Assembly: GCF_030758935.1 (NCBI RefSeq)
Contig: NZ_CP132333.1
Span: 704,992-744,991 of the forward strand
DNA: 40,000 nucleotides
Direction: 5' to 3'
Origin: Geothrix sp. PMB-07
GTDB lineage: Bacteria > Acidobacteriota > Holophagae > Holophagales > Holophagaceae
A model generated the notes under the pieces. The model saw only the letters and a list, made by a program, of their open reading frames with translations. It had not been told where the DNA came from and made no database searches. Shown one piece after another: positions 794 to 16,351 of the stretch; the first letter of the stretch is position 1, and each line of letters starts with the position of its first letter. Both the position numbers and the translations under genes were made by a program.

Positions 794-810
794 GAGTCGC
801 TCCGGGAGCC

Positions 811-918
811 ATCTAACGAGAGAAGCTAACCGGCCCTATTGCTGCGGGACACGGTCGCTGAATTGTTTGAGGACACTAGCGCGCAGCGATAGGGTCCGAG
901 TTGAGCGGAAGGTTAGGC
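811..918 (-). repeat. attC site, class 1 (108 bp)
   Basis: ATCTAAC at 811-817 and GTTAGGC at 912-918, with the same conserved scaffold as the other class-1 sites. Confidence 0.9.
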
Positions 919-1281
919 ACCCGATGACGCTGGAGCCCACCCGGAAATTCGAGATGCCTGGATTGGGTGCAACGAAAGGGATGCCGCCCGAGCGAGAACA
1001 ACGCCTGGGCTGGCCGAGCCCAAAGGCAAAGAACTGAGGCGGATTGCGCCAGTGGCGGAGTAAGGGAAGGAACGGCGGAGCCAGAATGCCACGAGAAGCT
1101 GCTGGATTCACCGGAGTATCGAGGGAGAACGGCGGCGCAGCGCGACAGCGCAAGCCCGCCATTCACGAACAGCCAGAGGCACCGAGAGGCAGAGATTCAC
1201 GATTGGCAAAGCTAGGAGGTTGAATTTGAACCCCAATTGAGAAGGACCAACCCCGGAAGACGATGGGAAAGCGCCGGGTGT
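919..1281. repeat. ORF-less paralogous cassette, copy A (363 bp); candidate ncRNA or regulatory element
   Basis: Bounded by attC cores at 912-918 and 1282-1288. Homologous over its full length to the inserts at 3851, 11574, 12046, 12517 and 13669. No reading frame is conserved among the copies. This is the most divergent copy in its 3' third. Confidence 0.85.
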
Positions 1282-1390
1282 GCCTAACGAAGGAAGCTAA
1301 CCGGCCCTATTGCTGCGGGAACCGAGTGGCTGAATTGTTTGAGGACACTAGCGCGCAGCGATAGGGTCCGAGTTGAGCGAAAGGTTAGGC
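1282..1390 (-). repeat. attC site, class 1 (109 bp)
   Basis: GCCTAAC at 1282-1288 and GTTAGGC at 1384-1390, with the conserved scaffold. Confidence 0.9.
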
Positions 1391-1396
1391 GAGCCA

Positions 1397-1705
1397 TCAA
1401 TACTGTCGACGGTTACGCCTGGACCTTAAGAAAAACAGCAAAAGGATTGTGAGTGGAACGGACCATGATGCTGCCGACCCGAAAATAATGATCGCAGCGT
1501 CACCGAATTTTCCGTAGCCACCTCCAAAAAGTAGAGAGCCATTCAACGATGAATAGAGGGCAACGCCAGGCCAGAGACACCACGCGATAGCTGAGTCAGA
1601 GTGATTGCCCGTAAAAGGCGTCACCAAGAAATAGACGAGTGCAGAGATGGCACAACAGGCAAGGAAGGTTAGGAACCAGGACTGAAGGATGGCCTTGCTG
1701 GACAT
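1397..1705 (-). CDS. Small hypothetical membrane protein (102 aa), integron cassette
   Basis: ATG at 1705 is preceded by GGAG. The protein is strongly hydrophobic with predicted TM helices. It fills the cassette between two attC sites. Confidence 0.55.
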   Translation of the reverse strand: MSSKAILQSWFLTFLACCAISALVYFLVTPFTGNHSDSAIAWCLWPGVALYSSLNGSLLFGGGYGKFGDAAIIIFGSAASWSVPLTILLLFFLRSRRNRRQY

Positions 1706-1731
1706 GGGCGCTCCGGCTGTTCTGATGTTTC

Positions 1732-1840
1732 GCCTAACGAGTGAAGCTAACCGGCCCTATTGCTGCGGGGACACGGCCGCTGAATTGTTTGAGGACACTA
1801 GCGCGCAGCGATAGGGTCCGAGTTGAGCGGAGGGTTAGGC
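1732..1840 (-). repeat. attC site, class 1 (109 bp)
   Basis: GCCTAAC at 1732-1738 and GTTAGGC at 1834-1840. The TAA stop of ORF 1835-2302 lies inside the core. Confidence 0.9.
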
Positions 1841-2302
1841 GAGCAGCGACTTACGCATGGAAGCATTCGACATTTTTACACCGCGAACAATGATTTCGTG
1901 GCGATTCTCAACATGAAACCCGTATCTATTGAAAAACGGTTCTGCAGTGAGGCTTACCTTGGAGTGAAGCTCGTTAATCTGAAGCGAGGCTGCCTTGGAA
2001 TGAATGTGATTCATCAAGGCTTGCCCAACTCCACGTCTGGCAAAAAGCCCCGACACATAGAAATGGTCGATGTAACCAGAGTGCTGCAAGTCGGCATATC
2101 CTACGGCATAGCCATCGATTTCAGCAATAAACGGGTGAATAGCCTGGATGCGCTTGGCCCATTCAGCCCGATCGTAATCAAACGGCGCCCATGCTGATTG
2201 CTGCTCAGGTGTGTACTGCCCACCCGTTAGCTCATGGACTGACGAGAAGAAGATGGACCTGAGGGCTGGCTCATCGCCAATTTGGAAGTTTCGGATCAAC
2301 AT
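1835..2302 (-). CDS. GNAT-family N-acetyltransferase (155 aa), integron cassette
   Basis: GNAT-like layout with the acetyl-CoA binding motif RRGVGQALM and C-terminal FFNRYGF. The start is 8 nt from the attC core. Confidence 0.85.
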   Translation of the reverse strand: MLIRNFQIGDEPALRSIFFSSVHELTGGQYTPEQQSAWAPFDYDRAEWAKRIQAIHPFIAEIDGYAVGYADLQHSGYIDHFYVSGLFARRGVGQALMNHIHSKAASLQINELHSKVSLTAEPFFNRYGFHVENRHEIIVRGVKMSNASMRKSLLA

Positions 2303-2310
2303 TCACTGGC

Positions 2311-2418
2311 GCCTAACGAGTGAAGCTAACCGGCCCTATTGCTGCGGGACACGGACGCTGAATTGTTTGAGGACTCTATCGCGCAGCGATAGGGTCCGAG
2401 TTGAGCGGAGGGTTAGGC
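2311..2418 (-). repeat. attC site, class 1 (108 bp)
   Basis: GCCTAAC at 2311-2317 and GTTAGGC at 2412-2418, with the conserved scaffold. Confidence 0.9.
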
Positions 2419-2427
2419 GGAGGACGG

Positions 2428-2814
2428 TCAATGGGACAGGCTGCGGTTAATAAAATAGGCAACGAACAATGGAACCACAAAAACCAGCCGACTGAAGGAG
2501 ATTGAAACAAAGGCAATGATCAAACCGATGATCAACCGACCAAGGTGAATCACCTGTAGTTTCAGAGATTCTGATAATTCCTGGTCTGATGGAGACTGAG
2601 CGCCGACTTTAGGGAACCTTGCCGAGAGACGGCCACCCAGAACATAAACCGCTGAGAACCACGGAAACGCGAGCACTGCGAGTAGTAGAACCGAAATCGT
2701 AGCCGCCTTCCAGGACTTGTGATTGAGGAGAAAACCACCACCTAGAGAGTAGAAGGTTGCACAGAATGCCGCCTTGCGAACACAGAGGCGTGAATGGCGG
2801 GTGAGTGATGGCAA
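2428..2814 (-). CDS. Hypothetical membrane protein (128 aa), integron cassette
   Basis: It fills the cassette and has hydrophobic helices (ISVLLLAVLAFPWFSAVYVL, LIIGLIIAFVSISF). Only a TTG start at 2814 is available, with no internal Met, so the start is uncertain. Confidence 0.45.
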   Translation of the reverse strand: MPSLTRHSRLCVRKAAFCATFYSLGGGFLLNHKSWKAATISVLLLAVLAFPWFSAVYVLGGRLSARFPKVGAQSPSDQELSESLKLQVIHLGRLIIGLIIAFVSISFSRLVFVVPLFVAYFINRSLSH

Positions 2815-2820
2815 GTGAGC

Positions 2821-2944
2821 GCCTAACGAACCAGGCTAACCGGCCACGCCTGCGCCGAGGCGCAGAACGGAGTCGAGGAAGCGAGAAGAAGAGAAAGAGT
2901 GGAAGGCAATGCAGGCGGGGTCCGAGTTGAGCTAGGGGTTAGGG
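2821..2944 (-). repeat. attC site, class 2 (124 bp)
   Basis: GCCTAAC at 2821-2827 and GTTAGGG at 2938-2944. It has a longer centre, with GGCCACGCCTGC pairing to GCAGGCGGGGTCC. The scaffold is shared with the sites at 6736, 7950, 10369 and 10931. Confidence 0.85.
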
Positions 2945-2960
2945 TGATCTGAACACGAGC

Positions 2961-3275
2961 TTACTTTCTATACGGTTCATCTACCTCGGAGAGTTCTCTT
3001 TCAATCAGCTGAACGGCATCTCTAATGGTAAAGCTACAGAGAATAATGGCCATCAGTGACCAGATGATTTGCTTCCTTCCAATGGCTGCAAGGAGGGCAA
3101 GACCAATTAATAGGGCTGAGACTATTACGATCAAATCAAGTGCCCAGATAACTGGCCAACTGGCGATAAATGGTTTCCAAAAGAAAACATGTCTATGGAC
3201 GAGATGATTCCAGACGCAGACCAACGCTGACCCTATGAAAATCACCTTTCCTAGACTCAGGGTGACTCGGGTCAT
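2961..3275 (-). CDS. Small hypothetical membrane protein (104 aa), integron cassette
   Basis: ATG at 3275, 7 nt from the attC core. Hydrophobic helices are present. It fills the cassette. Confidence 0.5.
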   Translation of the reverse strand: MTRVTLSLGKVIFIGSALVCVWNHLVHRHVFFWKPFIASWPVIWALDLIVIVSALLIGLALLAAIGRKQIIWSLMAIILCSFTIRDAVQLIERELSEVDEPYRK

Positions 3276-3282
3276 GCGGGAG

Positions 3283-3391
3283 CCCTAACGAAGGAAGCTA
3301 ACCGGCCCTATTGCTGCGGGGACCAGGCAGCTGAATTGTTTGAGGACACTAGCGCGCAGCGATAGGGTCCGAGTTGAGCGGAAGGTTAGGC
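3283..3391 (-). repeat. attC site, class 1 (109 bp)
   Basis: Variant box CCCTAAC at 3283-3289 and GTTAGGC at 3385-3391, with the conserved scaffold. Confidence 0.88.
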
Positions 3392-3436
3392 CGATGATGG
3401 TTCCGTGAAGGCACTGGGCTTAGAAAAACAGAGGCA

Positions 3437-3739
3437 TTAATGATGAAAGAGAATGAACACGGCGGGCGGCAGAAGCATTAGAAGCCAACCGAAGCAGTGG
3501 GCTGGCCTACGTGCTTTGAATGTACGCAGCAGAATGGAAACTCCAAACGCGGAGACGAGAAAGGCAAGGCCAGCTACAGCGATGCCAACCCAACCATCGA
3601 TGAAAAGACTATGCCCACTTTTTCCCTTGAGGCTTATCCCCCCTTGCACGAGGTCAAGCCAGCCGAACAATGCGAAGAATGTCGCCAGAATACCGGCGAT
3701 GACGCGTTCAGCGAGGGGATCCTGCGGAGGAAGATTCAT
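3437..3739 (-). CDS. Small hypothetical membrane protein (100 aa), integron cassette
   Basis: ATG at 3739, 3 nt from the attC core. Three hydrophobic helices are present. It fills the cassette. Confidence 0.5.
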   Translation of the reverse strand: MNLPPQDPLAERVIAGILATFFALFGWLDLVQGGISLKGKSGHSLFIDGWVGIAVAGLAFLVSAFGVSILLRTFKARRPAHCFGWLLMLLPPAVFILFHH

Positions 3740-3742
3740 GAG

Positions 3743-3850
3743 GCCTAACGAGTGAAGCTAACCGGCCCTATTGCTGCGGGACACGGGCGCTGAATTGTTC
3801 GAGGACACTAGCGCGCAGCGATAGGGTCCGAGTTGAGCGGAAGGTTAGGC
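3743..3850 (-). repeat. attC site, class 1 (108 bp)
   Basis: GCCTAAC at 3743-3749 and GTTAGGC at 3844-3850. Confidence 0.9.
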
Positions 3851-4212
3851 ACCCGATGAAGCTGAAGCCCACCCGGTTTTCGAGATGCCCGGATTGGGTG
3901 GAATGATCGGAATGCCGCCCGAGCCTGAAGGATGATCGGGGTGCCGAGCCCAAAGGCAAAGAACTGAGACGGATTGCGCCGGGGGTGAGGTGAGGGATGG
4001 AACGGCGGAGCCAGGATGCCACGAGAAGCGGCTGGATTCACTGGAGGAGTGGCGGAGAACGGCTGCGCAGCGCGACAGCGCAAGCCCGCCATTCATGGCG
4101 AGTCTGAGCTACCGGGGCGCGGCGATTCACGATTGGCGAAGGCAGGGTGCCGAATCCCGCACTCCGATTGAGAAGGATCGAACCCGGAAGACGATGGGAA
4201 AGCGCCGGGTGT
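3851..4212. repeat. ORF-less paralogous cassette, copy B (362 bp)
   Basis: Same family as copies A and C-F. It is closest to copy F in the variable segment GAATGATCGGAATGCCGCC...GATGATCGGGGT. No conserved frame. Confidence 0.85.
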
Positions 4213-4321
4213 GCCTAACGAGAGAAGCTAACCGGCCCTATTGCTGCGGGGACACGGACGCTGAATTGTTTGAGGACACTAGCGCGCAGCGATAGGGTCC
4301 GAGTTGAGCGAGAGGTTAGGC
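4213..4321 (-). repeat. attC site, class 1 (109 bp)
   Basis: GCCTAAC at 4213-4219 and GTTAGGC at 4315-4321. The TAA stop of ORF 4316-4735 lies in the core. Confidence 0.9.
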
Positions 4322-4735
4322 CGACACCCGGTAGTACAAATGAGGAACCTGTTCTTTTGGATCTTTCCGAATGATCCCAGATTGAACGGCGGCGGTAAAT
4401 GCCTGCCCCAGGACTGCACCATCTTCGAATTCAGGGAAAGCCTCTGGTGTTGACTGGACGAATACAGACAAACGCCACAAATCAAACCCATCAACCCTTC
4501 CGTTATCTCCGAAGTCCCAATCAATGGGCCCTTCGGGGGTTTCGACTCGGCAACCAGCGCCATGAAAGGCATATTCGAATTGTTGCTCGACATCAATGAA
4601 TCCCATTCTGGAAAGTCCCTGACGGCGCCAATCCATAAGATCAGAAATCCCCCGATGCGCCTTAAACAGAGACACCGCCAAGCGAACCCGCGCCTGGTAT
4701 GCATCGATCAGTTGATTGAATCGAGAAAGGTCCAT
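4316..4735 (-). CDS. Hypothetical cytoplasmic protein (139 aa), integron cassette
   Basis: ATG at 4735, 8 nt from the attC core. The composition looks like a globular protein and contains an FHGAGC motif. Family not recognised with confidence. Confidence 0.6.
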   Translation of the reverse strand: MDLSRFNQLIDAYQARVRLAVSLFKAHRGISDLMDWRRQGLSRMGFIDVEQQFEYAFHGAGCRVETPEGPIDWDFGDNGRVDGFDLWRLSVFVQSTPEAFPEFEDGAVLGQAFTAAVQSGIIRKDPKEQVPHLYYRVSA

Positions 4736-4743
4736 TCAGTGCG

Positions 4744-4852
4744 GCCTAACGAGAGAAGCTAACCGGCCCTATTGCTGCGGGGACACGGGCGCTGAATGGT
4801 TTGAGGACTCTATCGCGCAGCGATAGGGTCCGAGTTGAGCGGATGGTTAGGC
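4744..4852 (-). repeat. attC site, class 1 (109 bp)
   Basis: GCCTAAC at 4744-4750 and GTTAGGC at 4846-4852. The TAA stop of ORF 4847-5323 lies in the core. Confidence 0.9.
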
Positions 4853-5323
4853 AATCTCTCGCTTTACGACGAAGGTTTTCGAGAGGGAATCGTGCCACCC
4901 GCGGGATTCAGAACCAAAGAAGGAAAAGGGCTCGAAGGGGATGTACCGAGAAAATGATCGGCCGACTACTTGCGGAAGAGATGGGGGTTCCCCGAACTCA
5001 TTTACAACCCTAGTTTTGGTAATCAACTTCCCGACCGTAAACCCAAATGTATATTCCATGGCGATGTAGTAGATGACTCCAAAGAAGATCGAGTACAAAT
5101 TTGCTGTGCATCCGGATTGAAGATGTGCGACGCCCTTGGTGCCAAAGGCCATACCAACGGCCAAGCCGAAGCAAATTTGAACAGCAAAGAGAATTAAACC
5201 GTCGATAATGGCGTTTGCGAAACGAGTGCCTGAGCTGACCAGGTTAAGGGGAATCCGCCTCGAGGAAATCTCAGCCACCAGCGGGCTGCTAGGAGGTTCG
5301 TAAGGATTTGGAAACTGTTCCAC
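4847..5323 (-). CDS. RDD-family membrane protein (158 aa), integron cassette
   Basis: GTRFANAIIDGLILF (R..D), TM helices, TVGKLITKTRVV and a C-terminal GWHDSLSKTFVV, which is typical of RDD domains. GTG start at 5323 with GAGG upstream. Confidence 0.72.
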   Translation of the reverse strand: MEQFPNPYEPPSSPLVAEISSRRIPLNLVSSGTRFANAIIDGLILFAVQICFGLAVGMAFGTKGVAHLQSGCTANLYSIFFGVIYYIAMEYTFGFTVGKLITKTRVVNEFGEPPSLPQVVGRSFSRYIPFEPFSFFGSESRGWHDSLSKTFVVKREIA

Positions 5324-5347
5324 GTTGACCTCGATTGTTGGTGAGTT

Positions 5348-5456
5348 GCCTAACGAGAGAAGCTAACCGGCCCTATTGCTGCGGGAACCTGGATGCTGAA
5401 TTGTTTGAGGACACTAGCGCGCAGCGATAGGGTCCGAGTTGAGCGGAGGGTTAGGC
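5348..5456 (-). repeat. attC site, class 1 (109 bp)
   Basis: GCCTAAC at 5348-5354 and GTTAGGC at 5450-5456. Confidence 0.9.
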
Positions 5457-5500
5457 CGGTGCGATTTCTCGAACGAAGATGCGTATGGATGCGCAGGAGG

Positions 5501-5770
5501 CTAATTGAAGTGCCCGTATCCCCGAAGCCTCGGTGGCAACTGGTCAGGGTAAGGAAAGAGGGGAATATCCACTCTTGGTCTTCCGCGCTCCACGACGGGT
5601 TCTTCGGTCGCCAGCAATGAGGCTATCCGGAATTTCTCTGCGCTATTCCATTTGGGAAGGGGGGTTACCCGAACCTGAATGCCCTTGGGGGTTGCGAGCC
5701 GAGGTCCTGAATCTCCGTTCGTAGCGGCGATGGCCAAGGTGTTCACGAGCAGCACGAGAAGGAAGCGCAT
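5501..5770 (-). CDS. Small secreted hypothetical protein (89 aa), integron cassette
   Basis: ATG at 5770 is preceded by GGGAGG. N-terminal signal-peptide-like MRFLLVLLVNTLAIAA. The 133-nt leader from the attC is unusually long. Confidence 0.55.
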   Translation of the reverse strand: MRFLLVLLVNTLAIAATNGDSGPRLATPKGIQVRVTPLPKWNSAEKFRIASLLATEEPVVERGRPRVDIPLFPYPDQLPPRLRGYGHFN

Positions 5771-5903
5771 GGAGTTTACCTCCCGACGAAGTATACGGCT
5801 TAACTGGGACCGCTACCCACAACGATGGCGGAAGCCCGGATGTCTCTGGGTGGACCGCGGGCGAATGCTTATAGACACCCGGTAAGGCAACTGAGATGGG
5901 CGG

Positions 5904-6012
5904 GCCTAACGAGAGAAGCTAACCGGCCCTATTGCTGCGGGAACCGGGACGCTGAATTGTTTGAGGACACTAGCGCGCAGCGATAGGGTCCGAGTTGAGC
6001 GGAGGGTTAGGC
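5904..6012 (-). repeat. attC site, class 1 (109 bp)
   Basis: GCCTAAC at 5904-5910 and GTTAGGC at 6006-6012. Confidence 0.9.
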
Positions 6013-6026
6013 GATCACGGGAGCGT

Positions 6027-6383
6027 TCACTCAGAATACTCCCTTGCTAGGGCTTCAACGACTCGCTTGATTAGCGGGTAAGGGATTGGTTTGTTCTTCG
6101 GAAATTGAAGATTTCCTTTCGGACCGCGGAAGGGGAGTAGCTCTTCATTGAGACGTTTGTCGCCCTTGACGGGTGGATAGATTCCGATGTGATGTTTGAA
6201 TGATGCGAAGTAGAAGAAAGTCTTCTGAAGCTTCAATGCAGGCATTTGGTAACTTATGCATTCGATGGCTTTGGGCACTGCCTGTTTGGCAATTCGCCGA
6301 ATCTCTTGAAGGATCAATTGAGATTCGGGGTCGACTGAGGCTAGGTAATCATCAACATCTACGAATTTCGGTCTGCCCGCCAT
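6027..6383 (-). CDS. DUF1801 (YdhG-like) domain protein (118 aa), integron cassette
   Basis: VDDYLASV...LQEIRRIAKQAVPKAIECISYQMPALKL...HIGIYP matches the YdhG/DUF1801 pattern. Confidence 0.82.
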   Translation of the reverse strand: MAGRPKFVDVDDYLASVDPESQLILQEIRRIAKQAVPKAIECISYQMPALKLQKTFFYFASFKHHIGIYPPVKGDKRLNEELLPFRGPKGNLQFPKNKPIPYPLIKRVVEALAREYSE

Positions 6384-6417
6384 TTCGACCTCCTGGTTGA
6401 GATGGTTCTAAGGTGGC

Positions 6418-6484
6418 GCCTAACGAGAATGAGCTAAGCGGACCGGGCGCTAGCGCACGGGTCCGCTTGAGCGAACGGTTAGGC
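6418..6484 (-). repeat. attC site, class 3 (67 bp, short)
   Basis: GCCTAAC at 6418-6424 and GTTAGGC at 6478-6484. The centre is compact, with GCGGACCGGGCGC pairing to GCGCACGGGTCCGC. It resembles the site at 9853. Confidence 0.85.
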
Positions 6485-6735
6485 AGTGCGTTGACCTTGG
6501 TGGAAGCGGGCAACGAACTGCCGAACGAAGGGAAAGATCGAATGAACGAAGCATAGCGCTTGGTGTTGCGCGGTTGAAGGGAAACGCCGTTGAAGGAACC
6601 AGGGCGAGACGAACCTGCAGTCGAACCCTGAAAAGTGCTGGTTCATGCGCGGTGATGACGTGCCCACGCGGGGCGATCAAAGATGCGAAAACCTGAAACC
6701 GAAGCGAAACCGTTTGAGACGAAGTGCTGGTGGCG
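6485..6735. other. Short cassette (251 bp) without a convincing ORF
   Basis: Bounded by the attC sites at 6418-6484 and 6736-6859. The only candidate is a 62-aa ORF (6479-6667, -) with no Shine-Dalgarno sequence and an odd composition. The plus strand is purine-rich with repeated GAACGAA. Confidence 0.5.
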
Positions 6736-6859
6736 GCCTAACGAGTGAAGCTAAGCGGCCACGCCTGCACCGAGTCGATGAGCGGAGTCGGGATAGCGAA
6801 ATGCTGAGAGAGAGCGAAAGGAAATGCAGGCGGGGTCCGACTTGAGCGGAGGGTTAGGC
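6736..6859 (-). repeat. attC site, class 2 (124 bp)
   Basis: GCCTAAC at 6736-6742 and GTTAGGC at 6853-6859, with the class-2 scaffold. Confidence 0.88.
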
Positions 6860-6873
6860 CGCTCGGCGAGGAG

Positions 6874-7362
6874 CTAAGGTTTTGGTTTTCTTGCACTGAA
6901 CGACCCATCAAGATTTTCTGTGACAACCAACCCCTTGCTACGCAGAAATTCAATCTGATCCTCCTTGGAAAGGGGTTTTGATGGATCTTCAGCAGGTGGA
7001 GGCTGAACTGCAATTTCTGAAGGCAGTTTGGAACGCTTGAGAAACCCCGCAAGCGAACCCCAACCGTCTTTGGCTGAAAAGCTGCCTTTGATATAGGGGC
7101 GACCGCCATCGGCTGGATGGAAAGGAGTCTCGAGGTAATCACGCTCTCCTTGGTGCAATTCACGAGCACCGCCGTCAGGATTCACGTATATGTAAGGGTA
7201 AGGGTGAACAAGGGCCTCTTCAGGTTGCACGATAGACCATTGGGGGCTTGGGTTTGGTAATCCGACCCGCTTGTTCTTTGATGAACCTCGCCCCTGCCTG
7301 AGAATCAGGACAATTGCTGCGATGCCTGAGATGAGAATTACCCAGCCTAGGATTGTTTGCAT
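6874..7362 (-). CDS. Hypothetical protein with N-terminal TM anchor (162 aa), integron cassette
   Basis: ATG at 7362, 8 nt from the attC core. N-terminal helix ILGWVILISGIAAIVLIL followed by a soluble domain. No family recognised. Confidence 0.6.
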   Translation of the reverse strand: MQTILGWVILISGIAAIVLILRQGRGSSKNKRVGLPNPSPQWSIVQPEEALVHPYPYIYVNPDGGARELHQGERDYLETPFHPADGGRPYIKGSFSAKDGWGSLAGFLKRSKLPSEIAVQPPPAEDPSKPLSKEDQIEFLRSKGLVVTENLDGSFSARKPKP

Positions 7363-7370
7363 GAGAAGCG

Positions 7371-7479
7371 GCCTAACGAGAGAAGCTAACCGGCCCTATT
7401 GCTGCGGGGACACGGATGCTGAATTGTTTGAGGACTCTATCGCGCAGCGATAGGGTCCGAGTTGAGCGGAGGGTTAGGC
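7371..7479 (-). repeat. attC site, class 1 (109 bp)
   Basis: GCCTAAC at 7371-7377 and GTTAGGC at 7473-7479. Confidence 0.9.
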
Positions 7480-7497
7480 CTGTGCCATTCGGAGCAT

Positions 7498-7890
7498 TCA
7501 AATGATCCCCCACTTTTTCTCAAGGCGAGCCAAGTCCGATAGAACTTTACGGAAAGCTTCTCGTTGTGAATCGCGATCCGCCTTCAATGATTTGAGGCCT
7601 TTTATCGTGGCGGAAGAAAGGTAAGGCTGTATGTCAGCAAACAGAACCGACTGGGTGAATGAAGTATTGTCCTTCAGGATGCCAATCGAAACTGGAATCG
7701 TTGGGTCGCCAACAATCTTGGTGATCTCAGAAACATTGCTTCGCCAGATAAGCAGCTTCTCCTTTCGTCGCGCATAACGAAGACGATGCCTCTCAATCCC
7801 CCATTTAGACCAAGGAGCTATCAGTGAGGCCACTGCGCCAATCAGACCACCCGAGAAAGCACCTGATACGACAGCATCCCAATTGACCAT
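7498..7890 (-). CDS. Hypothetical protein with N-terminal TM helix (130 aa), integron cassette
   Basis: ATG at 7890 with GGAGGA upstream (CCTGGAGGACTCCTGATG). N-terminal helix GGLIGAVASLIAPW. No family recognised. Confidence 0.55.
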   Translation of the reverse strand: MVNWDAVVSGAFSGGLIGAVASLIAPWSKWGIERHRLRYARRKEKLLIWRSNVSEITKIVGDPTIPVSIGILKDNTSFTQSVLFADIQPYLSSATIKGLKSLKADRDSQREAFRKVLSDLARLEKKWGII

Positions 7891-7949
7891 CAGGAGTCCT
7901 CCAGGTTGGAAACCGTTTTGCCATCATGCTAAGAAATGATTAGAGCAGG

Positions 7950-8073
7950 GCCTAACGAAGGAAGCTAAGCGGCACCGCCTGCGCCGAGACAACGAGCGGA
8001 GCCGAGATAGCAAGATGCTGAGAGAGAGCGGAAGGCAATGCAGGCGGGGTCCGACTTGAGCGAGGGGTTAGGC
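7950..8073 (-). repeat. attC site, class 2 (124 bp)
   Basis: GCCTAAC at 7950-7956 and GTTAGGC at 8067-8073. The site is entirely overlapped by the 3' end of ORF 7952-8623. Confidence 0.88.
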
Positions 8074-8623
8074 GCGCCGAGTCAATCCAGAAATTGAAGT
8101 CGTCTTTGACAGAAGCGTAGACGCTGTCATAGGTGTCACAGATCAAATCTAGCCCAACATTTCCTTCAACTAAAAAGGCGCGAACAATCCGGTGTACTGC
8201 ACCACCGTATTCAATCGTTCCTTGAATAATAATTTTGTCGCCATGATCGATACTGGTTTCGATTCTCATCGGGTTTTTATTTTGTTTGAAGTCAGAAAAA
8301 TCTTTAAGAGAGGTGACTCCCTCTGGAAGGGGCATTAGCAAGATGGAGACAACGGGCCTAACTGCCACTCCATCCTTGTCGCGAATGGGTAGGCGCTTCA
8401 GCATCACTGCATTCAGATTTGGCTGAGGTTGATAGACCTCTTGAGTCGCGTCTTTCCAAATCGATTCGTCTGGGTTCACGAAACGAGCCTGAATCTGATT
8501 ATTGGGTAGTGATAAGGCCTGTTCCTTTGAGGCCTTACCAGCGCTTTGGAGCAATACGTGCGATCCGATAAACAGGAGGGTCGCAAACAGAATTCGATTG
8601 GAAACGATCAGTCGAATGTTCAT
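7952..8623 (-). CDS. Secreted hypothetical protein (223 aa); the C-terminal ~40 aa are encoded by its own attC
   Basis: ATG at 8623, 4 nt from the attC core. Signal-peptide-like N-terminus LFATLLFIGSHVLLQSAG. No stop occurs before the attC, and the frame closes at a TAG in the distal core (7952-7954). Confidence 0.6.
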   Translation of the reverse strand: MNIRLIVSNRILFATLLFIGSHVLLQSAGKASKEQALSLPNNQIQARFVNPDESIWKDATQEVYQPQPNLNAVMLKRLPIRDKDGVAVRPVVSILLMPLPEGVTSLKDFSDFKQNKNPMRIETSIDHGDKIIIQGTIEYGGAVHRIVRAFLVEGNVGLDLICDTYDSVYASVKDDFNFWIDSARLTPRSSRTPPALPSALSQHLAISAPLVVSAQAVPLSFLR

Positions 8624-8627
8624 AAGC

Positions 8628-8736
8628 GCCTAACGAGAGAAGCTAACCGGCCCTATTGCTGCGGGAACCTGGCTGCCGAATTGTTTGAGGACACTAGCGC
8701 GCAGCGATAGGGTCCGAGTTGAGCGAGAGGTTAGGC
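8628..8736 (-). repeat. attC site, class 1 (109 bp)
   Basis: GCCTAAC at 8628-8634 and GTTAGGC at 8730-8736. Confidence 0.9.
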
Positions 8737-8740
8737 GCAC

Positions 8741-9847
8741 TCAGATTGGGGAGTGCCAAACGGCATGATGCGACGAGGATAGGAACGACTCGATTAGTTC
8801 TGAAAGAAATACAGCCGAGGGGCGAGGATGGTCTACTTGGCGCTGTATGAGTGGATAGAGTTTTCGGACCCCATCCCAGGTTCGCACGAGTTTCTTGTTT
8901 CGGTGCTGGGTGTAGTTTTGGATTTCCTTTTCTGGGATGCGATCTCCGAGGATGACATCAGCCAGTGAGTAGACAAGGATTTCATCGAGCATGGCCGCCT
9001 CTGTATCACCACCTTCATCCGGTGCCTTTGAGGAGAGATCAAGCTTCCAGCGTTTCCGAGGGTACCGATCCGAGAAATCGAGGAATACTTCACGGGGGCG
9101 GAGGGATTTGTGAAGCGCTTCATGAAGGAAGATTCCGCAGCATCTTTGGATCGATTTTGGGGAAGCGCCAGGTTCCATCTCTGCGTAGATGCCTTCACCG
9201 TTTGCCCCACCCTGGGCGCTGGTTTTGCTGAAGGTATAAACCAGGAAGATCGGTAACTGATTCCACGCAGGACGCCCTTTTCTCGCGAAAACTCGAGTTA
9301 CACCGCGCAATGCCCTCATCTTTGCATCCAATCGATCCAACTCATCGCTCATCAGCGGTCTAACTTTTTCTAATTCGCGCATGCGACGGGCCAAGGGGTC
9401 CTGGTAGCCGGCCTGATTCCAGAAGTGATCAATGACCTCTTTGAGCTCCTTGTACTCCTTCGGGTAGCCGTTCAGGGGGAATCCTGCTTCCGCCCATAGG
9501 AAAAGGGCTGTCTCCTCACCGAAACCGAGAGGGCGTCTCGTAGCAGCATATCGGACGAGCCAAGATCTCGATTCCTCGTCTGGTTTCGGAATTCCAAGAA
9601 GCGCATAGTCCACGCTATCAGCAGGGCAAATTGGATCCCAGGCACTGATTGTGTCGACGAAGTGGAAGAAGGCCACTTGTTCAGAAAGACGGAGTGTCGG
9701 CTGGATCGTGGAGAGCGATGAGGCCTGCTTCCGTTCAGGCAGTTGGACAGAACCTTCTTCCGCCATCAGTGATGGCACGAGAAGGAATAAAAGAATCACT
9801 AGATGCTTGATTTTAATGGGAGATGGTTTCAAGGCTGTGCGCGACAT
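8741..9847 (-). CDS. Secreted protein with HExxH motif (368 aa), putative zinc metallopeptidase-like; integron cassette
   Basis: ATG at 9847, 5 nt from the attC core. Signal peptide HLVILLFLLVPSLMA. HEALH lies within GIFLHEALHKS. This is the largest cassette in the array. Confidence 0.65.
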   Translation of the reverse strand: MSRTALKPSPIKIKHLVILLFLLVPSLMAEEGSVQLPERKQASSLSTIQPTLRLSEQVAFFHFVDTISAWDPICPADSVDYALLGIPKPDEESRSWLVRYAATRRPLGFGEETALFLWAEAGFPLNGYPKEYKELKEVIDHFWNQAGYQDPLARRMRELEKVRPLMSDELDRLDAKMRALRGVTRVFARKGRPAWNQLPIFLVYTFSKTSAQGGANGEGIYAEMEPGASPKSIQRCCGIFLHEALHKSLRPREVFLDFSDRYPRKRWKLDLSSKAPDEGGDTEAAMLDEILVYSLADVILGDRIPEKEIQNYTQHRNKKLVRTWDGVRKLYPLIQRQVDHPRPSAVFLSELIESFLSSSHHAVWHSPI

Positions 9848-9852
9848 AGGGC

Positions 9853-9918
9853 GCCTAACGAGAGGAGTTTAGCGGACCAGGCGCTTGCGCCTGGGTCCGC
9901 TGCAACGGGGGGTTAGGC
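9853..9918 (-). repeat. attC site, class 3 (66 bp, short)
   Basis: GCCTAAC at 9853-9859 and GTTAGGC at 9912-9918. GCGGACCAGGCGC pairs with GCGCCTGGGTCCGC. Confidence 0.85.
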
Positions 9919-9924
9919 GCAACG

Positions 9925-10341
9925 CTAACAGCGATCATGATGTTTGGCCTTAGCGGCGTCTGCGACGAGGTTCTCGAGGACCTTCAAATCTACATCTGCA
10001 AGATTGCGGATATATAAGCAGCCCTTGCCAGCCTTGTGCTTACCCAATTTTGCAATGAGATCATCGTGGGTGGGAGCTGCATTGAGCCCATAGATGCTGA
10101 TGTCGCTCTTTCGAGAGGAAAACCCCACAAGGCAGGTATCGCCTTCCCGGCCACTCTCATATTTGTAGTGGTAGCTCCCGAAACCAACGATGCTGGTGCC
10201 CCACATTTTGGGGGTTTCCTTCGTGGCCTTCGACATCAGCTTGGTTAAAGTCTCACAGTCCTTGCGCCGGGCTGAATCTTGAATGCCTTCGATGTAGCTC
10301 TCGACGCTAGCCTCGGTAGCCTTGGTTTTGTTCTCAGCCAT
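9925..10341 (-). CDS. DUF1801 (YdhG-like) domain protein (138 aa), integron cassette
   Basis: SVESYIEGI...KMWGTSIVGFGSYHYKYESGREGD...GFSSRKSDISIY is the typical DUF1801 pattern. Confidence 0.85.
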   Translation of the reverse strand: MAENKTKATEASVESYIEGIQDSARRKDCETLTKLMSKATKETPKMWGTSIVGFGSYHYKYESGREGDTCLVGFSSRKSDISIYGLNAAPTHDDLIAKLGKHKAGKGCLYIRNLADVDLKVLENLVADAAKAKHHDRC

Positions 10342-10368
10342 GGTGACTCCTGATGAACGTGGTAAGGC

Positions 10369-10492
10369 GCCTAACGAAGGAAGCTAAGCGGCACCGCCTG
10401 CGCCGAGGCGAAGAGCAGAGCCGGGGTAGCAAAATGCTGAGAGAGAACGGAAGGCAATGCAGGCGGGGTCCGACTTGAGCGAGGGGTTAGGC
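10369..10492 (-). repeat. attC site, class 2 (124 bp)
   Basis: GCCTAAC at 10369-10375 and GTTAGGC at 10486-10492. The TAA stop of ORF 10487 lies in the core. Confidence 0.88.
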
Positions 10493-10909
10493 GTCGCTGG
10501 GCTTGGCGCCGGGGAACCATTCAGTATGTTGCTCGCCCTGGCGACCGAAATAGGTCACACGCTGCCCTCGGAGGAAGGCAAAGTAGCCTTGGACTCCTGC
10601 AGTAACAGCTCGCTCACTAAAATTGCGAAACTTCTGGCCGTGCTGTTGGCTATCAACAATGGCGGCTCGTAGTGAGACCTTGTCGAAGTCTTTGGCGATG
10701 GAAGGAAGGTCCTCGAAGGAAAGTGGAGCATGTGCCACAGCACCTTCAGCGCTATAGAAGGTGAAGGACTTAGAGGCATAGTCCACGAAGTAATACTCCA
10801 CCCCATTGCCTATGAGACTTGCCACGATCTCCGGGAACGGCATTGAGCCCGTGAGAGTGGCTCGGGCAGCTTTGAGGACTTCATTTGCATCCACGGCCTG
10901 AACCTCCAT
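10487..10909 (-). CDS. DUF1398-family protein (about 140 aa), integron cassette
   Basis: FPEIVASLIGNGVEYYFVDY...FRNFSERAVTAGVQGYFAFLRGQRVTYFGRQGEQHTEWFPG matches the DUF1398 pattern. The start is either ATG at 10909 or TTG at 10918. Confidence 0.75.
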   Translation of the reverse strand: MEVQAVDANEVLKAARATLTGSMPFPEIVASLIGNGVEYYFVDYASKSFTFYSAEGAVAHAPLSFEDLPSIAKDFDKVSLRAAIVDSQQHGQKFRNFSERAVTAGVQGYFAFLRGQRVTYFGRQGEQHTEWFPGAKPSDA

Positions 10910-10930
10910 GGTGAACAATGCTGGGGCGAC

Positions 10931-11054
10931 GCCTAACGAATGAAGCTCACCGGCCCCGCCTGCACCGAGGCGATGAACGAAGCCGAGGAAGCGAGAAGCT
11001 GAGAGAGAACGAAAGGCAATGCAGGCGGGGTCCGAGTGCAGCGCAGGGTTAGGC
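10931..11054 (-). repeat. attC site, class 2 (124 bp)
   Basis: GCCTAAC at 10931-10937 and GTTAGGC at 11048-11054. Confidence 0.88.
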
Positions 11055-11066
11055 CGGCCAGGGTAT

Positions 11067-11459
11067 TCACTTTTTCGCTTTGATTGGGTAGTGCCCGTTG
11101 ATCGGGAGTGGCTTCTTTTGGCCAGTTTCTTCTATGACGAAGATCGAGACACTGGCAGTTTGCCTATCGAGGTCAAGCACGACGCTACCCTCAAACTTGG
11201 ACCTCTCAGTGGCCGAATTGATATAGAGATTCATGTTGGCGCTGGAGTATGAATTACTCCTGTCTTTGAACTCAAAGCGGTAACTGTCTGAATCTCGATA
11301 CGGGCCGCACATCGCCCAGTGGGGGCCGCCATGGGTGTATTCCACCCAGAAGACACCGTTGCCATCTGGGTAAAAGGTTGGTTTCTTGCTTGAACAGCCT
11401 GAATTGAAGACAGTCGCCAAAAGGATTGCCATTCCTGTGATGAGCGCAGCATGTTTCAT
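11067..11459 (-). CDS. Putative lipoprotein (130 aa), integron cassette
   Basis: ATG at 11459, 5 nt from the attC core. Signal peptide AALITGMAILLATVFNSGC with a Cys at the predicted cleavage position. Confidence 0.62.
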   Translation of the reverse strand: MKHAALITGMAILLATVFNSGCSSKKPTFYPDGNGVFWVEYTHGGPHWAMCGPYRDSDSYRFEFKDRSNSYSSANMNLYINSATERSKFEGSVVLDLDRQTASVSIFVIEETGQKKPLPINGHYPIKAKK

Positions 11460-11464
11460 TGGCG

Positions 11465-11573
11465 GCCTAACGAAGGAAGCTAACCGGCCCTATTGCTGCG
11501 GGAACCAGGGAGCTGGATTGTTTGAGGACACTAGCGCGCAGCGATAGGGTCCGAGTTGAGCGGAAGGTTAGGC
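11465..11573 (-). repeat. attC site, class 1 (109 bp)
   Basis: GCCTAAC at 11465-11471 and GTTAGGC at 11567-11573. Confidence 0.9.
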
Positions 11574-11936
11574 ACCCGATGACGCTGGAACCCACCCGGT
11601 TTCCGAGATGCCCGGATTGAGTGCAGCGAATGGGATGCCGTCCGAGTGCGAAGAACGGCTGGGAAAGCCGAGCCCAAAGTCAAAGAGCTAAGGCGGATTG
11701 CGCCAGGGGTGAGGCAAGAGAAGGAACGGCGGAGCCAGGATGCCACGAGAAGCTGCTGGGTTCACCGAATGAATGGTGGAGAACGGCCGCGCAGCGCGGC
11801 AGCGCAAGCCCGCCATTCATGGCGAGCCTGAGCCACCGCGGCGCAGAGATTCGCGATTGGCAAAGCCAGAGCGCTGAACCCCGCACTCCGATTGAGAAGG
11901 ATCGAACCCGGAAGCTGATGGGAAAGCGCCGGGTGT
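11574..11936. repeat. ORF-less paralogous cassette, copy C (363 bp)
   Basis: First (leftmost) member of a run of three consecutive family members. No conserved frame, and the minus-strand frame has an in-frame stop here. Confidence 0.85.
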
Positions 11937-12045
11937 GCCTAACGAAAGAAGCTAACCGGCCCTATTGCTGCGGGGACACGGACGCTGAATTGTTTGAGGA
12001 CGCTATCGCGCAGCGATAGGGTCCGAGTTGAGCGGAAGGTTAGGC
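11937..12045 (-). repeat. attC site, class 1 (109 bp)
   Basis: GCCTAAC at 11937-11943 and GTTAGGC at 12039-12045. Confidence 0.9.
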
Positions 12046-12408
12046 ACCCGATGAAGCTGGAGCCTACTCGGACATTCGAGGCGCCCAGTCTGGGCGCAAC
12101 GGACGGGATGTCGCCCGAATGGGAAGGGCAGCTGGTTTGACCGAGCCCAAAGGCAAAGAACTGGGGTGGATTGCGCCAAGGGTGAGGCAAGGGAAGGAAC
12201 GGCGAAGCCATGTTGCCACGAGAGGCCACTGGATTCATCGAGTGAGTGGTGGAGAACGGCTGCGCAGCGCGACAGCGCAAGCCCGCCATTCATGGCGAGT
12301 CTGAGCCACCGGGGCGAAGAGATTCGCGACTGGCGAAGTCAGGGTGATAAACCCGCACTCGGATTGAGAAGGATCGAACCCGGAAGACGATGGGAAAGCG
12401 CCGGGTGT
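12046..12408. repeat. ORF-less paralogous cassette, copy D (363 bp)
   Basis: Family member. It carries a private perfect hairpin GCGCCCAGTCTGGGCGC where other copies read ATGCCCGGATTGGGTG. A 1-nt indel relative to C and E sits near 12350. Confidence 0.85.
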
Positions 12409-12516
12409 GCCTAACGAGTGAAGCTAACCGGCCCTATTGCTGCGGGACACGGGCGCTGAATTGTTTGAGGACACTAGCGCGCAGCGATAGGGTCCGAGTT
12501 GAGCGGAAGGTTAGGC
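12409..12516 (-). repeat. attC site, class 1 (108 bp)
   Basis: GCCTAAC at 12409-12415 and GTTAGGC at 12510-12516. Confidence 0.9.
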
Positions 12517-12880
12517 ACCCGATGAAGCTGGAGCCCACCCGGGCATTCGAGATGGCCGGATTGGGTACAGCGAATGGGGTGCCGACGGAGCGGGGAGAGC
12601 GGCAGGGAAAGCCGAGCCCAAAGGCAAAGAACTGAGGCGGATTGCGCCAGGGGTAAGGTGAGTGAAGGAACGGCGGAGCCAGGATGCCACGAGAAGCCGC
12701 TGGGTTCACCGGATGAGTGTTGGAGAACGGCTGCGCAGCGCGACAGCGCAAGCCCGCCATTCATGGCGAGTCTGAGCCACCGAGGCGGAGAGATTCACGA
12801 TTGGCGAAGCCAGTGTGCTGAACCCCGCACTCCGATTGAGAAGGATCGAACCCGGAAGACGATGGGAAAGCGCCGGGTGT
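12517..12880. repeat. ORF-less paralogous cassette, copy E (364 bp)
   Basis: Family member. I used it as the reference for the candidate helices described in the findings. Confidence 0.85.
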
Positions 12881-12988
12881 GCCTAACGAGAGAAGCTAAC
12901 CGGCCCTATTGCTGCGGGACACGGACGCTGAATTGTTTGAGGACACTAGCGCGCAGCGATAGGGTCCGAGTTGAGCGGAAGGTTAGGC
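12881..12988 (-). repeat. attC site, class 1 (108 bp)
   Basis: GCCTAAC at 12881-12887 and GTTAGGC at 12982-12988. Confidence 0.9.
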
Positions 12989-12997
12989 CTGCCAGGT

Positions 12998-13321
12998 TCA
13001 TTGTTGGGCCTGCTGAACACGAATCCAAATGGAAGAGGTCATGCCTTGCTGCCACACACCACGCAACAACTCCTTAAACCTAAGGTTATTCTTGGCCTCA
13101 TACTCGACCATGCTGATGATCTGGTCGCCATGGATAGAGAGTAGATCTTCTAACGGCCCAGCGGCCAGCATTGAGCGACGTTTCTCGGAATATGGCCGAG
13201 AGTTCGCCTCGAGGATGAATCGCCATGCTGAGAGGGGCTCATCTCTGATGAGGTCACGAAGCCGGTCTTCTGCAGCAAAGTGATCATGCAGAGAAGGATC
13301 TTCTGAGTCCGGATCTGGCAT
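12998..13321 (-). CDS. Hypothetical acidic protein (107 aa from Met at 13321); second gene of a two-gene cassette
   Basis: The ORF track starts at 13414 and would overlap the upstream gene by 80 nt. The internal ATG at 13321 lies 13 nt after the upstream stop. No family recognised. Confidence 0.5.
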   Translation of the reverse strand: MPDPDSEDPSLHDHFAAEDRLRDLIRDEPLSAWRFILEANSRPYSEKRRSMLAAGPLEDLLSIHGDQIISMVEYEAKNNLRFKELLRGVWQQGMTSSIWIRVQQAQQ

Positions 13322-13334
13322 AGGCGCGCCAATG

Positions 13335-13544
13335 TCATCGAGGTTCGAACCAATGAATGAAACCGCATTTCGCGCAGATAATGCAGTATTCAGTTGGCCC
13401 GGTCCATTCGACACCTAGCATTGTTGAACCCATTGTATGAAGCTGGGCTTCGCGTTTGAAAAACAAATCATGTTTACAAAATAGACAAACAATCGGACGG
13501 TCGTTGATTCTGTATTGCTGTGCTTCACGATGGAACAGGCTCAT
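13335..13544 (-). CDS. Small zinc-ribbon-like protein (69 aa; CxxC ... CxxCG); first gene of a two-gene cassette
   Basis: ATG at 13544 is preceded by CAGGAG. Cys pairs CLFC and CAKCG are spaced as in zinc ribbons. Confidence 0.5.
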   Translation of the reverse strand: MSLFHREAQQYRINDRPIVCLFCKHDLFFKREAQLHTMGSTMLGVEWTGPTEYCIICAKCGFIHWFEPR

Positions 13545-13559
13545 AGTGGCTCCTGTAGC

Positions 13560-13668
13560 GCCTAACGAGAGAAGCTAACCGGCCCTATTGCTGCGGGGAC
13601 CTGGCAGCTGAATTGTTTGAGGACTCTATCGCGCAGCGATAGGGTCCGAGTTGAGCGGAAGGTTAGGC
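13560..13668 (-). repeat. attC site, class 1 (109 bp)
   Basis: GCCTAAC at 13560-13566 and GTTAGGC at 13662-13668. This is the attC of the first cassette. Confidence 0.9.
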
Positions 13669-14029
13669 ACCCGATGAAGTTGAATCCCACTCGGGCGTTG
13701 AGATGCCCGGATTGGGTGGAACGAGCGGAATGCCGCCGGAACATGAAGGATGATCGGGGTGCCGAGCCCAAAGGCAAAGAACTGAGGCGGATTGCGCCAG
13801 GGGTGAGGCGAGGGACGGAACGGCGGAGCCAGGATGCCACGAGAAGCCGCTGGATTCACTGGTGGAGTGGCGGAGAACGGATGCGAAGCGCGACAGCGCA
13901 AGCCCGCCATTCATGGCGGATGTGGGTTACCAGGGTGAGGAGATTCGCGACTGGCGAAGCCTGGGCGCTGAACCCGCACTCCGATTGAGAAGGATCGAAC
14001 CCGGAAGACGATGGGAATGCGCCGGGTGT
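13669..14029. repeat. ORF-less paralogous cassette, copy F (361 bp); first, attI-proximal cassette
   Basis: Lies directly between the attI core (14030-14036) and the first attC. Full-length family member, closest to copy B. Confidence 0.85.
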
Positions 14030-14110
14030 GCCTAACGAGAATTGGACGGCGGTGGGTTGGGGGTGGGAGGTTCGTCTAGTTTGGGGGGAGGCCGTTGGGG
14101 GAGGGTTGGT
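14030..14110 (-). other. attI recombination region (core GTTAGGC read on the minus strand at 14036-14030)
   Basis: This is the last core site before intI. The sequence to its right is unique, has no attC scaffold and is G-rich (GGTGGGTTGGGGGTGGGAGG...TTTGGGGGGAGG...TTGGGGGAGGG). The extent of attI is estimated. Confidence 0.6.
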
Positions 14111-14144
14111 ATTTGATGGGGAATGGACGAACTTGGCTGAGGGC

Positions 14145-14172
14145 TTGACGAGCGAAAAAAAAGCGATAGATT
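14145..14172 (+). promoter_or_regulatory. Candidate intI promoter (TTGACG - 16 nt - TAGATT)
   Basis: A -35-like TTGACG at 14145-14150 and a -10-like TAGATT at 14167-14172, about 83 nt upstream of the intI start. Based on sequence pattern only. Confidence 0.35.
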
Positions 14173-14254
14173 GAGCCGTGGCGCAGTGTTCATGCTTGGA
14201 GGTCGGTCCCAAGGGTAGCGTAATGGGCGAACCCCTGGGGGGAGGAGTATTCCC

Positions 14255-16032: not shown

Positions 16033-16060
16033 GTCCTGTGCCTGGTGGAAGGGGATGTTG

Positions 16061-16272: not shown

Positions 16273-16351
16273 GAATCGGTCTTTTGCGGTTCATCTCCCG
16301 CGGGCCTCGCTATGCTGATCGATCCGGATTGATGCCGGACGGGGTTCTGCG

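Follow-up and report, generated by a model that had tools for sequence, protein, structure and literature searches.

We analyzed a 40,000-nt window of Geothrix sp. PMB-07 (NZ_CP132333.1, positions 704,992 to 744,991), of which the left 14 kb is an integron cassette array beside the integrase gene intI, and we found that six of its cassettes are copies of one gene-less element of about 362 bp. This element is a true mobile integron cassette, made up of an insert plus its own attC, and it is non-coding, a conclusion that we regard as solid. In the interpretation that we favor, at a probability of roughly 0.45, the insert carries a non-coding element under purifying selection whose sense strand is the active one, and this strand would be transcribed with the array into an RNA with a closed fold that serves as a regulatory or protein-binding RNA. 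The six copies, named c1 to c6, lie at the following window positions:

13669-14029, minus strand: copy c6, 361 bp, the first cassette, abutting attI directly, with attI rather than an attC as its right flank (nhmmer E = 8e-107)
12517-12880, minus strand: copy c5, 364 bp, the reference copy for the structural model
12046-12408, minus strand: copy c4, 363 bp, the middle one of three tandem copies
11574-11936, minus strand: copy c3, 363 bp
3851-4212, minus strand: copy c2, 362 bp, 91% identical to c6
919-1281, minus strand: copy c1, 363 bp, with the greatest divergence among the window copies (78-83% identity to the rest)

An earlier note on this DNA had described the six inserts as homologous over their full length, and our alignments bear this out, with a MAFFT mean column identity of 91% when flanks are included, insert-only pairwise identities of 78-91%, and nhmmer profile scores of E = 1e-105 to 1e-111 for each copy. 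Measured between the GTTAGGC and GCCTAAC cores, the inserts span 363, 362, 363, 363, 364 and 361 bp (c1 to c6), as the note's 361-364 bp had it, and its figure of six among about 25 cassettes is a fair count given the 23 inserts with exact cores plus a few more with degenerate cores that we found bounded by GCCTAAC...GTTAGGC attC sites. These cores border all six copies, identifying each as an integron gene cassette. Three of the copies stand in tandem across 11574-12880, and c6, being joined directly to attI, is by that position the most recently integrated cassette. The inserts are also richer in guanine plus cytosine (GC) than the other cassettes (0.61-0.63 vs 0.44-0.58), again as previously stated.

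Beyond the window we identified seven further copies, one in Geothrix terrae, one in G. alkalitolerans, four on three metagenome contigs, and one known solely as a called protein, bringing the family to 11 full-length DNA copies, one partial copy and the protein-only member. The two Geothrix copies (G. terrae L001:2231-2593; G. alkalitolerans L004:4469-4832) are full-length cassettes about 71-76% identical to the window family, and they emerged from a 20-mer scan of one genome per species that also gave two chance matches. The four metagenome copies, on contigs L007, L014 and L015, are 61-90% identical and 361-369 bp long. A gapped pattern scan of metagenomes yielded one true contig, L007, in which two of the seven cassettes are family copies, together with seven chance matches. 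The other two contigs were reached through protein libraries: the minus-strand open reading frame (ORF) translation, searched against a library of 5.8 billion protein clusters, returned only P0001 and P0003, which are gene calls over other copies, and through P0003 we reached L014, where a copy shares 90% identity with c5; P0005, recovered by exhaustive phmmer searching with a plus-strand ORF, is a gene call crossing an attC into the divergent copy on L015. That copy (L015:193-561) is the most divergent member, at 369 bp and 61-72% identity with a 6-nt insertion. No copies of the element were found in the viral and plasmid collections, and the family is rare in public data, every array in which we saw it having attC sites of the Geothrix type. 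Six of the seven chance matches, the metagenome contigs L005, L006, L008-L010 and L012, carry near-identical AT-rich sequence unrelated to the element, a repeat that is probably eukaryotic.

Two weaker resemblances turned up alongside these relatives. A third cassette on L007 (L007:92-406, where the plus strand is the sense strand) is weakly like the block-A region of the element (CGACGACCCCAAAGGGAAAGACCTGGAG, nhmmer E = 8e-4); an ORF of about 80 aa is possible in it as well, and the likeness could come from remote kinship or from composition. In an unrelated betaproteobacterial Niveibacterium metagenome-assembled genome (L003:6708-6751), a perfect 17-bp intergenic hairpin contains the invariant 20-mer CAGCGCAAGCCCGCCATTCA, with 25-26 bases matching; this may reflect chance or a shared short motif.

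The absence of a conserved reading frame, claimed earlier from the six window copies, extends to the family as a whole. No frame connects the conserved blocks, whose phases disagree already within the window. With block A (CCAAAG) as the reference, GCCATTCA takes phase 0 in L007 and the window-type copies, phase 1 in both Geothrix genomes and phase 2 in L015; ATTGAGAAGGA takes phase 0 in c1, c4, c6 and L014 but phase 1 in c2, c3 and c5; and over the whole family, blocks B and C each take phase 0, 1 or 2. The same nucleotides are thus read in different frames, so that the conservation of the blocks cannot stem from a protein. Variable columns show no codon periodicity when counted by position modulo 3 (64/75/67), synonymous fractions are 0.22-0.44 in frames that contain stops, and several copies have in-frame stops in all candidate frames. 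Pfam had no match in any of the six frames of the element, nor did NCBIfam match it, and the plus-strand ORF has no word-sharing relatives. All told, the 5.8-billion and a 1.84-billion protein library gave only ORF calls on copies of the element, one attC translation and one low-complexity repeat protein. With neither a conserved ORF nor a protein homologue, the cassette is gene-less (ORF-less).

A small-protein gene on one strand or the other, or a group of pseudogenes decaying from it, would account for the long ORFs on both strands of the window copies, for the decision of gene callers elsewhere to call P0001/P0003 (minus strand) and P0005 (plus strand), and for a plus-strand ATG ORF that is open through the entire insert in both Geothrix copies. 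Several frames are indeed open together, as had been noted, and the composition of the element explains this: T makes up 11-14% of the plus strand in the window copies (8-14% over the whole family, with 61-63% purine), and this depletion of T, matched by one of A in the minus strand, makes stop codons rare on both strands and gives many overlapping ORFs. The Geothrix plus-strand ORFs, moreover, differ at about the number of residues expected neutrally (a hand estimate from the frame translations). Set against the phase shifts of the invariant blocks B and C relative to A, the in-frame stops, the variable-column counts, the lack of a six-frame Pfam match, and a 5.8-billion-cluster library that matches solely through calls on the element itself, a coding origin appears highly improbable, and the view that this is no decaying gene is well supported by the frame, periodicity, Pfam and protein-library evidence. 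We also observed that gene callers annotated 'hypothetical proteins' on both strands of the element (L015:78-521, P0001/P0003), and such calls over a non-coding element are a source of spurious protein families in metagenome catalogues.

The sense strand of the element and its own attC follow from the organization of the array, which comprises these features:

14255-15265, plus strand: intI, the integron integrase gene (TIGR02249, E = 3.9e-136, 453 bits against a cut-off of 265)
about 14030-14254, strand unassigned: attI region between the first cassette and intI, holding a promoter-like site
14145-14172, plus strand: sigma-70-like promoter TTGACG-16-TAGATT, directed at intI
13560-13668, minus strand: attC belonging to c6, of the 109-nt class
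12409-12516, minus strand: attC belonging to c5
11937-12045, minus strand: attC belonging to c4
11465-11573, minus strand: attC belonging to c3
3743-3850, minus strand: attC belonging to c2
about 810-918, minus strand: attC belonging to c1, with a degenerate R'' core

Because intI lies on the plus strand and every Pfam-supported cassette ORF lies on the minus strand (GNAT, RDD, two DUF1801, DUF1398 and DUF6869), we take the minus strand as the cassette sense strand, and with this orientation the attC that belongs to each element is the one on its left, a site of the 109-nt class in every copy. In the established model of attC recombination, IntI recombines the bottom strand, which is identified by its extra-helical bases. 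Read directly from the attC alignment, these bases sit on the 3' arm of the plus strand, making the plus strand the recombined bottom strand. No sigma-70-like promoter other than the one at 14145-14172 was seen in the attI/intI region. As a separate observation, cumulative GC skew climbs almost steadily over window positions 1-40000 and the plus strand looks like the replication leading strand; given this leading-strand composition, the attC bottom strands would lie on that strand.

The flanks of the element show what travels with it. The left flank is identical across all six copies while the right flank is variable (MAFFT alignment), and the attC sites of c2-c6 share 93% mutual identity against 77% to the other attC sites of the array, an alignment that took in c2-c6, the c1 site escaping capture owing to its degenerate R'' core. 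This core, at about 810-818, reads CATCTAAC where GCCTAAC would be expected, and as a result the c1 cassette may have lost its excisability. Three attC length classes occur in the window array (1282-13668), namely 109 nt (the majority), 124 nt and about 66 nt, and the 124-nt class is that seen in the Geothrix genomes, where the attC sites of both family copies are longer (about 124 nt). The L014 array likewise combines 109-nt and 124-nt classes, and such mixing suggests cassette exchange between pools with different attC types. Within L014, the family copy keeps its left 109-nt attC though the neighboring attC is of the 124-nt class, and across different arrays the element occurs with three attC classes. 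Movement mediated by IntI is evident in the position of c6 at attI and in the attC that traveled with the element in L014.

Such mobility raises the question of whether the cassette is selfish or 'empty', its features serving its own spread or retention to no advantage of the host, for example through a single-stranded DNA fold that favors excision or integration. Its high copy number (six of about 25 cassettes here, with three in tandem, and 2/7 on L007) and the presence of c6 in the newest position, at attI, are what such a cassette would show. The window paralogues, however, are 78-91% identical rather than near-identical, which indicates no recent copying bursts; the fold signal described below falls on the top strand and not on the attC bottom strand that IntI recombines; and we know of no mechanism by which cassette content affects attC recombination. 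We consider a selfish cassette improbable, even granting that single-stranded DNA and RNA folds are inseparable by computation (PMC5737381), a point that also weighs on the RNA interpretation.

Selection on the element is visible in how its conservation is arranged. Across members that are 61-90% identical (up to 39% difference), 140 of the 373 alignment columns are invariant. The near-invariant segments quoted in the earlier note are present in the window copies, and across the wider family the longest invariant runs reduce to GGATTGCGCC, GCCATTCA and ATTGAGAAGGA, with conserved blocks occupying identical locations within the window and between species. Indels are of 1-2 nt in all cases but one, total length stays at 361-369 bp, and the purine excess is constant (0.61-0.63) in all members, variable segments included. 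This constancy of purine excess and length points to a function that depends on strand and on length. The sense 3' 100 nt are the least conserved part of the element.

Conserved blocks that alternate with variable spacers at a fixed overall length would also suit a cassette acting at the DNA level, as a promoter, an insulator or a multi-site protein-binding element that modulates neighboring cassettes. Precedent exists in the gene-less promoter cassettes of Vibrio superintegrons, most of the 29 gene-less Vibrionaceae cassettes studied showing sense-strand promoter activity (10.1101/2023.11.21.568050), and the just modest support for structure (below) leaves more room for this explanation. Yet no sigma-70-like -35/-10 pair occurs in any copy on either strand (a criterion that is not decisive for Acidobacteriota), the poorly conserved sense 3' 100 nt are exactly where an outward promoter would be expected, a promoter needs neither a fixed length of about 360 bp nor a purine/pyrimidine asymmetry that persists in variable segments, and the fold and covariation signal is strand-specific. 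On balance, we judge a DNA-level function unlikely. For the multi-site protein-binding DNA element that the earlier note offered beside a structured RNA, the evidence points neither way. Sigma-54 and extracytoplasmic function (ECF) promoters, judged by eye, had no conserved match.

The RNA interpretation rests on the comparison of the two strands. The earlier claim of a structured RNA gained modest support, and this on the minus strand, where the consensus fold and its compensatory pairs exceeded their null expectation, whereas the plus strand did not depart from its null, single-sequence z-scores were weak and a hold-out comparison was negative. Using 10 sequences, consensus energy relative to column shuffles gave z = -3.0 on the minus strand (1/150) and -0.6 on the plus strand, and for the central hairpin the values were -4.0 (0/300) and -1.1, with the plus-strand comparison being made on the exact reverse-complement alignment. 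Using 11 sequences (L014 and L015 added), the minus-strand consensus contained 84 pairs, 15 of them altered on both sides (double-change pairs) as compared with 8.0 +/- 2.0 in per-pair shuffles (0/500), while the plus strand had 6 against 5.8 (285/500). Because RNAalifold picks its pairs partly by covariation, columns were also shuffled, refolded and recounted. Under this stricter null, the 15 double-change pairs of the minus strand compare with 7.7 +/- 2.9, and the tallies were 10/300 for energy, 1/300 for pairs, 8/300 for double-change pairs and 5/300 for double-change cells; the plus strand gave 65/120 and 56/120. We regard the minus-strand signal, in fold and covariation alike, as genuine though modest (p of about 0.02-0.03). 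We prefer RNA over recombination DNA as its carrier because the signal falls on the top strand, identical in sequence to the sense RNA, and not on the recombined bottom strand.

These same statistics bear on the possibility that the purine-rich plus strand is the functional RNA, as an antisense regulator or a sponge of the CsrB/RsmZ type with GGA motifs. That strand is 61-63% purine with 11-19 GGA triplets in about 363 nt, and sRNA-Xcc1 and symE in Xanthomonas integrons are also oriented against the cassette promoter, Pc (10.1101/2025.06.18.660453). The GGA counts, though, equal those of composition shuffles (10.6-13.2 +/- 2.8), GGA sites such as CAGGATG vary between copies, and the invariant blocks have no GGA, so that the element does not qualify as a CsrB/RsmZ-type sponge, its GGA triplets being neither enriched nor at conserved positions and its plus strand having no conserved hairpins. 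Adding to this the lack of a plus-strand fold or covariation signal (z = -0.6 and 0.05; 6 vs 5.8 double-change pairs) and the fact that changes preserving minus-strand helices through G-U pairs leave C-A mismatches in the plus strand, we hold a plus-strand RNA to be very unlikely.

The fold predicted for the sense strand is given here in c5 coordinates:

12817-12878, minus strand: predicted 5' arm of the terminal long-range helices (helices 1-8 carry most of the compensatory pairs)
12517-12571, minus strand: predicted 3' arm of the terminal long-range helices, the least conserved part in primary sequence
12668-12762, minus strand: predicted central hairpin of about 95 nt, in which a 21-pair imperfect basal helix joins GAAUGGCGGGCUUGCGCUGUCGCG and CGUGGCAUCCUGGCUCCGCCGUUC
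12580-12626, minus strand: predicted helix of UGCCUUUGGGC with GCUC(C/G)G.CGGCA (helix 16: 10 pairs, 2 of them changed on both sides)
12636-12648, minus strand: predicted small conserved hairpin GGCG-CAAUC-CGCC
12794-12808, minus strand: predicted small hairpin
12836-12845, minus strand: invariant pyrimidine-rich UCCUUCUCAA, unpaired in the model and lying within the 5' arm

The two segments joined by the central helix, GAAUGGCGGGCUUGCGCUGUCGCG and CGUGGCAUCCUGGCUCCGCCGUUC, are the two most conserved blocks of the element, and four pairs of this helix are G-U, which turn into C-A mismatches on the plus strand. Compensatory changes include U-A to C-G between lineages (alignment pair 32/343), C-G to G-C in L007 and L015 (62/321), G-C to A-U (56/326), and C-G to U-A in c1 (47/332), and L007 requires a one-base register shift to fit the fold. 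If the conserved blocks pair with one another in this manner, it would explain the alternation of blocks with variable segments, the fixed length, and the retention of a poorly conserved sense 3' end.

Several observations weigh against this interpretation. Single-sequence folding energies are ordinary on the minus strand: z-scores ranged from -0.3 to -2.2 overall, with c5 at -1.1 (minus) and -2.2 (plus) and G. terrae at -0.45 and -0.32, respectively; the central hairpin taken by itself averaged about -2. Values of z = -2 to -4 were reached at the level of the alignment, and there for the minus strand only. The structure conservation index reaches 0.55 only. At nine sequences, the RNAalifold covariation term was near zero on both strands with pair counts no better than in shuffles, and in the hold-out a structure derived from the window-type copies alone was kept at 52% in the Geothrix-type copies against a 50% null. 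Significance rests on 11 related sequences from about four lineages, and several of the compensatory changes are single lineage-level events. L015 disrupts part of the terminal helices and 2/9 basal pairs of the central helix, and the predicted fold was altered once this copy was added. Finally, no Pc-like promoter was recognized on the minus strand within 14000-15300.

Searches for known RNAs left the element outside any described family, in keeping with the earlier note's failure to recognize it. Rfam had no match in the window and related loci, whether at the gathering threshold or with E relaxed to 10, the Rfam covariance model of sRNA-Xcc1 had none in the elements at the same thresholds, and ARAGORN found no tRNA or tmRNA in the element. 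Some specific ideas were set aside along the way. A tRNA-like or tmRNA origin of GGGTTCGATCC was rejected on the ARAGORN result and on the variation of this motif between copies, a Rho-loading (rut) site in the C-rich sense strand would leave the invariant blocks unexplained, and three-frame stop signals built from three RTGAAT motifs are not retained in the Geothrix copies. Self-alignment gave no sign of internal tandem or duplicated units, its scores being no higher than those of shuffles, and the search for a trans target inside the window gave only chance matches of 12-15 nt. A functional link to the neighboring cassettes was likewise dismissed, the neighbors being unrelated (GNAT, RDD, DUF1801, DUF1398, DUF6869).

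Bringing these lines together, we propose that gene-less cassettes of this family circulate among the sedentary chromosomal integrons of Geothrix-like (Holophagae, Acidobacteriota) bacteria, where the element would be co-transcribed with the array from the cassette-sense, pyrimidine-rich minus strand. The sense RNA is predicted to form a closed domain in which 65 nt at the 5' end and 55 nt at the 3' end are joined through interrupted long-range helices, enclosing the roughly 95-nt central hairpin, a second helix and small hairpins. The unpaired, invariant UCCUUCUCAA is where a protein or a purine-rich RNA may make contact, and we would guess at an RNA that regulates or binds protein before a ribozyme or a riboswitch. 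The comparisons above show directly that the element is a mobile, non-coding cassette, conserved across species and with strand-specific fold and covariation signals, while for RNA as the active molecule, its transcription and its action we argue from these patterns. A bolder version, in which the family is an undescribed class of large (about 360 nt) structured RNA, carried as mobile-cassette cargo, exchanged among Holophagae integrons, stockpiled as several diverged copies per array and acting in trans to regulate, to partner a protein or to serve in defence, strikes us as possible but doubtful.

Comparison to known systems places the family near, though apart from, three of them. Like the gene-less cassettes of Vibrionaceae superintegrons and of Treponema/oral integrons, the element is a true cassette with its own attC and no gene, residing among protein-coding cassettes (10.1101/2023.11.21.568050; PMC6557892); unlike those cassettes, which have sigma-70 promoters, it is GC-rich, has no promoter-like site, and forms a single unit of about 362 bp that is conserved across species and attC classes, multi-copy, and marked by a strand-specific fold signal, in an Acidobacteriota host lineage rather than in Vibrio or Treponema. 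With sRNA-Xcc1 of Xanthomonas, a non-coding RNA on an integron cassette that is shared between species by cassette transfer (10.1101/2025.06.18.660453), it has in common that it is cassette-borne, its own RNA status being putative, while sequence and covariance-model similarity are lacking; sRNA-Xcc1 also has symE as a companion in its cassette and runs counter to Pc, whereas the element is alone in its cassette with its fold signal on the Pc-sense strand. The DUF1874 motif (Weinberg et al. 2017) is likewise conserved and associated with integron-like arrays; both are multi-stem, by prediction in the case of our element, and for both an RNA role and a single-stranded DNA role are inseparable by computation. 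Candidates of its type recur in consecutive intergenic regions, possibly as attC-like single-stranded DNA (PMC5737381). That motif, however, is placed between genes like an attC, whereas the element is cargo between two ordinary attC sites with its signal on the top strand that is not recombined. Literature searches returned no description of gene-less or RNA-bearing cassettes of such kind in Acidobacteriota. The kind is thus known, from gene-less cassettes and one cassette-borne small RNA, and the family itself is unrelated in sequence to either, larger, multi-copy, and diverged within one array.

Elsewhere in the window, the insert at 6485-6735 (251 bp) has a plus-strand purine fraction of 0.63, a GC content of 0.57 and a minus-strand ORF with no Pfam match; it sits between a 67-nt and a 124-nt attC, shares only 12-18 nt matches with the 362-bp family, and may be a second, unrelated gene-less cassette. 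On the far side of intI, NCBIfam and Pfam match nothing in a 276-aa ORF (15488-16318, plus strand) that precedes the gene of a YihG-family acyltransferase (16352-17242).

Integron arrays have been read almost wholly as stores of protein genes, with gene-less cassettes mostly ignored or taken as promoters. In the present array, a quarter of the cassettes belong to one non-coding family, and this family has been kept over an identity range of 61-90% in cultured Geothrix species and in metagenomes. With G. terrae and G. alkalitolerans in culture, what it does is directly testable. Should it prove to be a promoter or a selfish cassette instead, the family would still show what retains gene-less cassettes outside Vibrio. 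If it is an RNA, it would be the second case after sRNA-Xcc1, unrelated and much larger, of integrons moving RNA genes, and with a cargo RNA of about 360 nt, integrons would be carriers not of protein genes alone but of RNA genes too.

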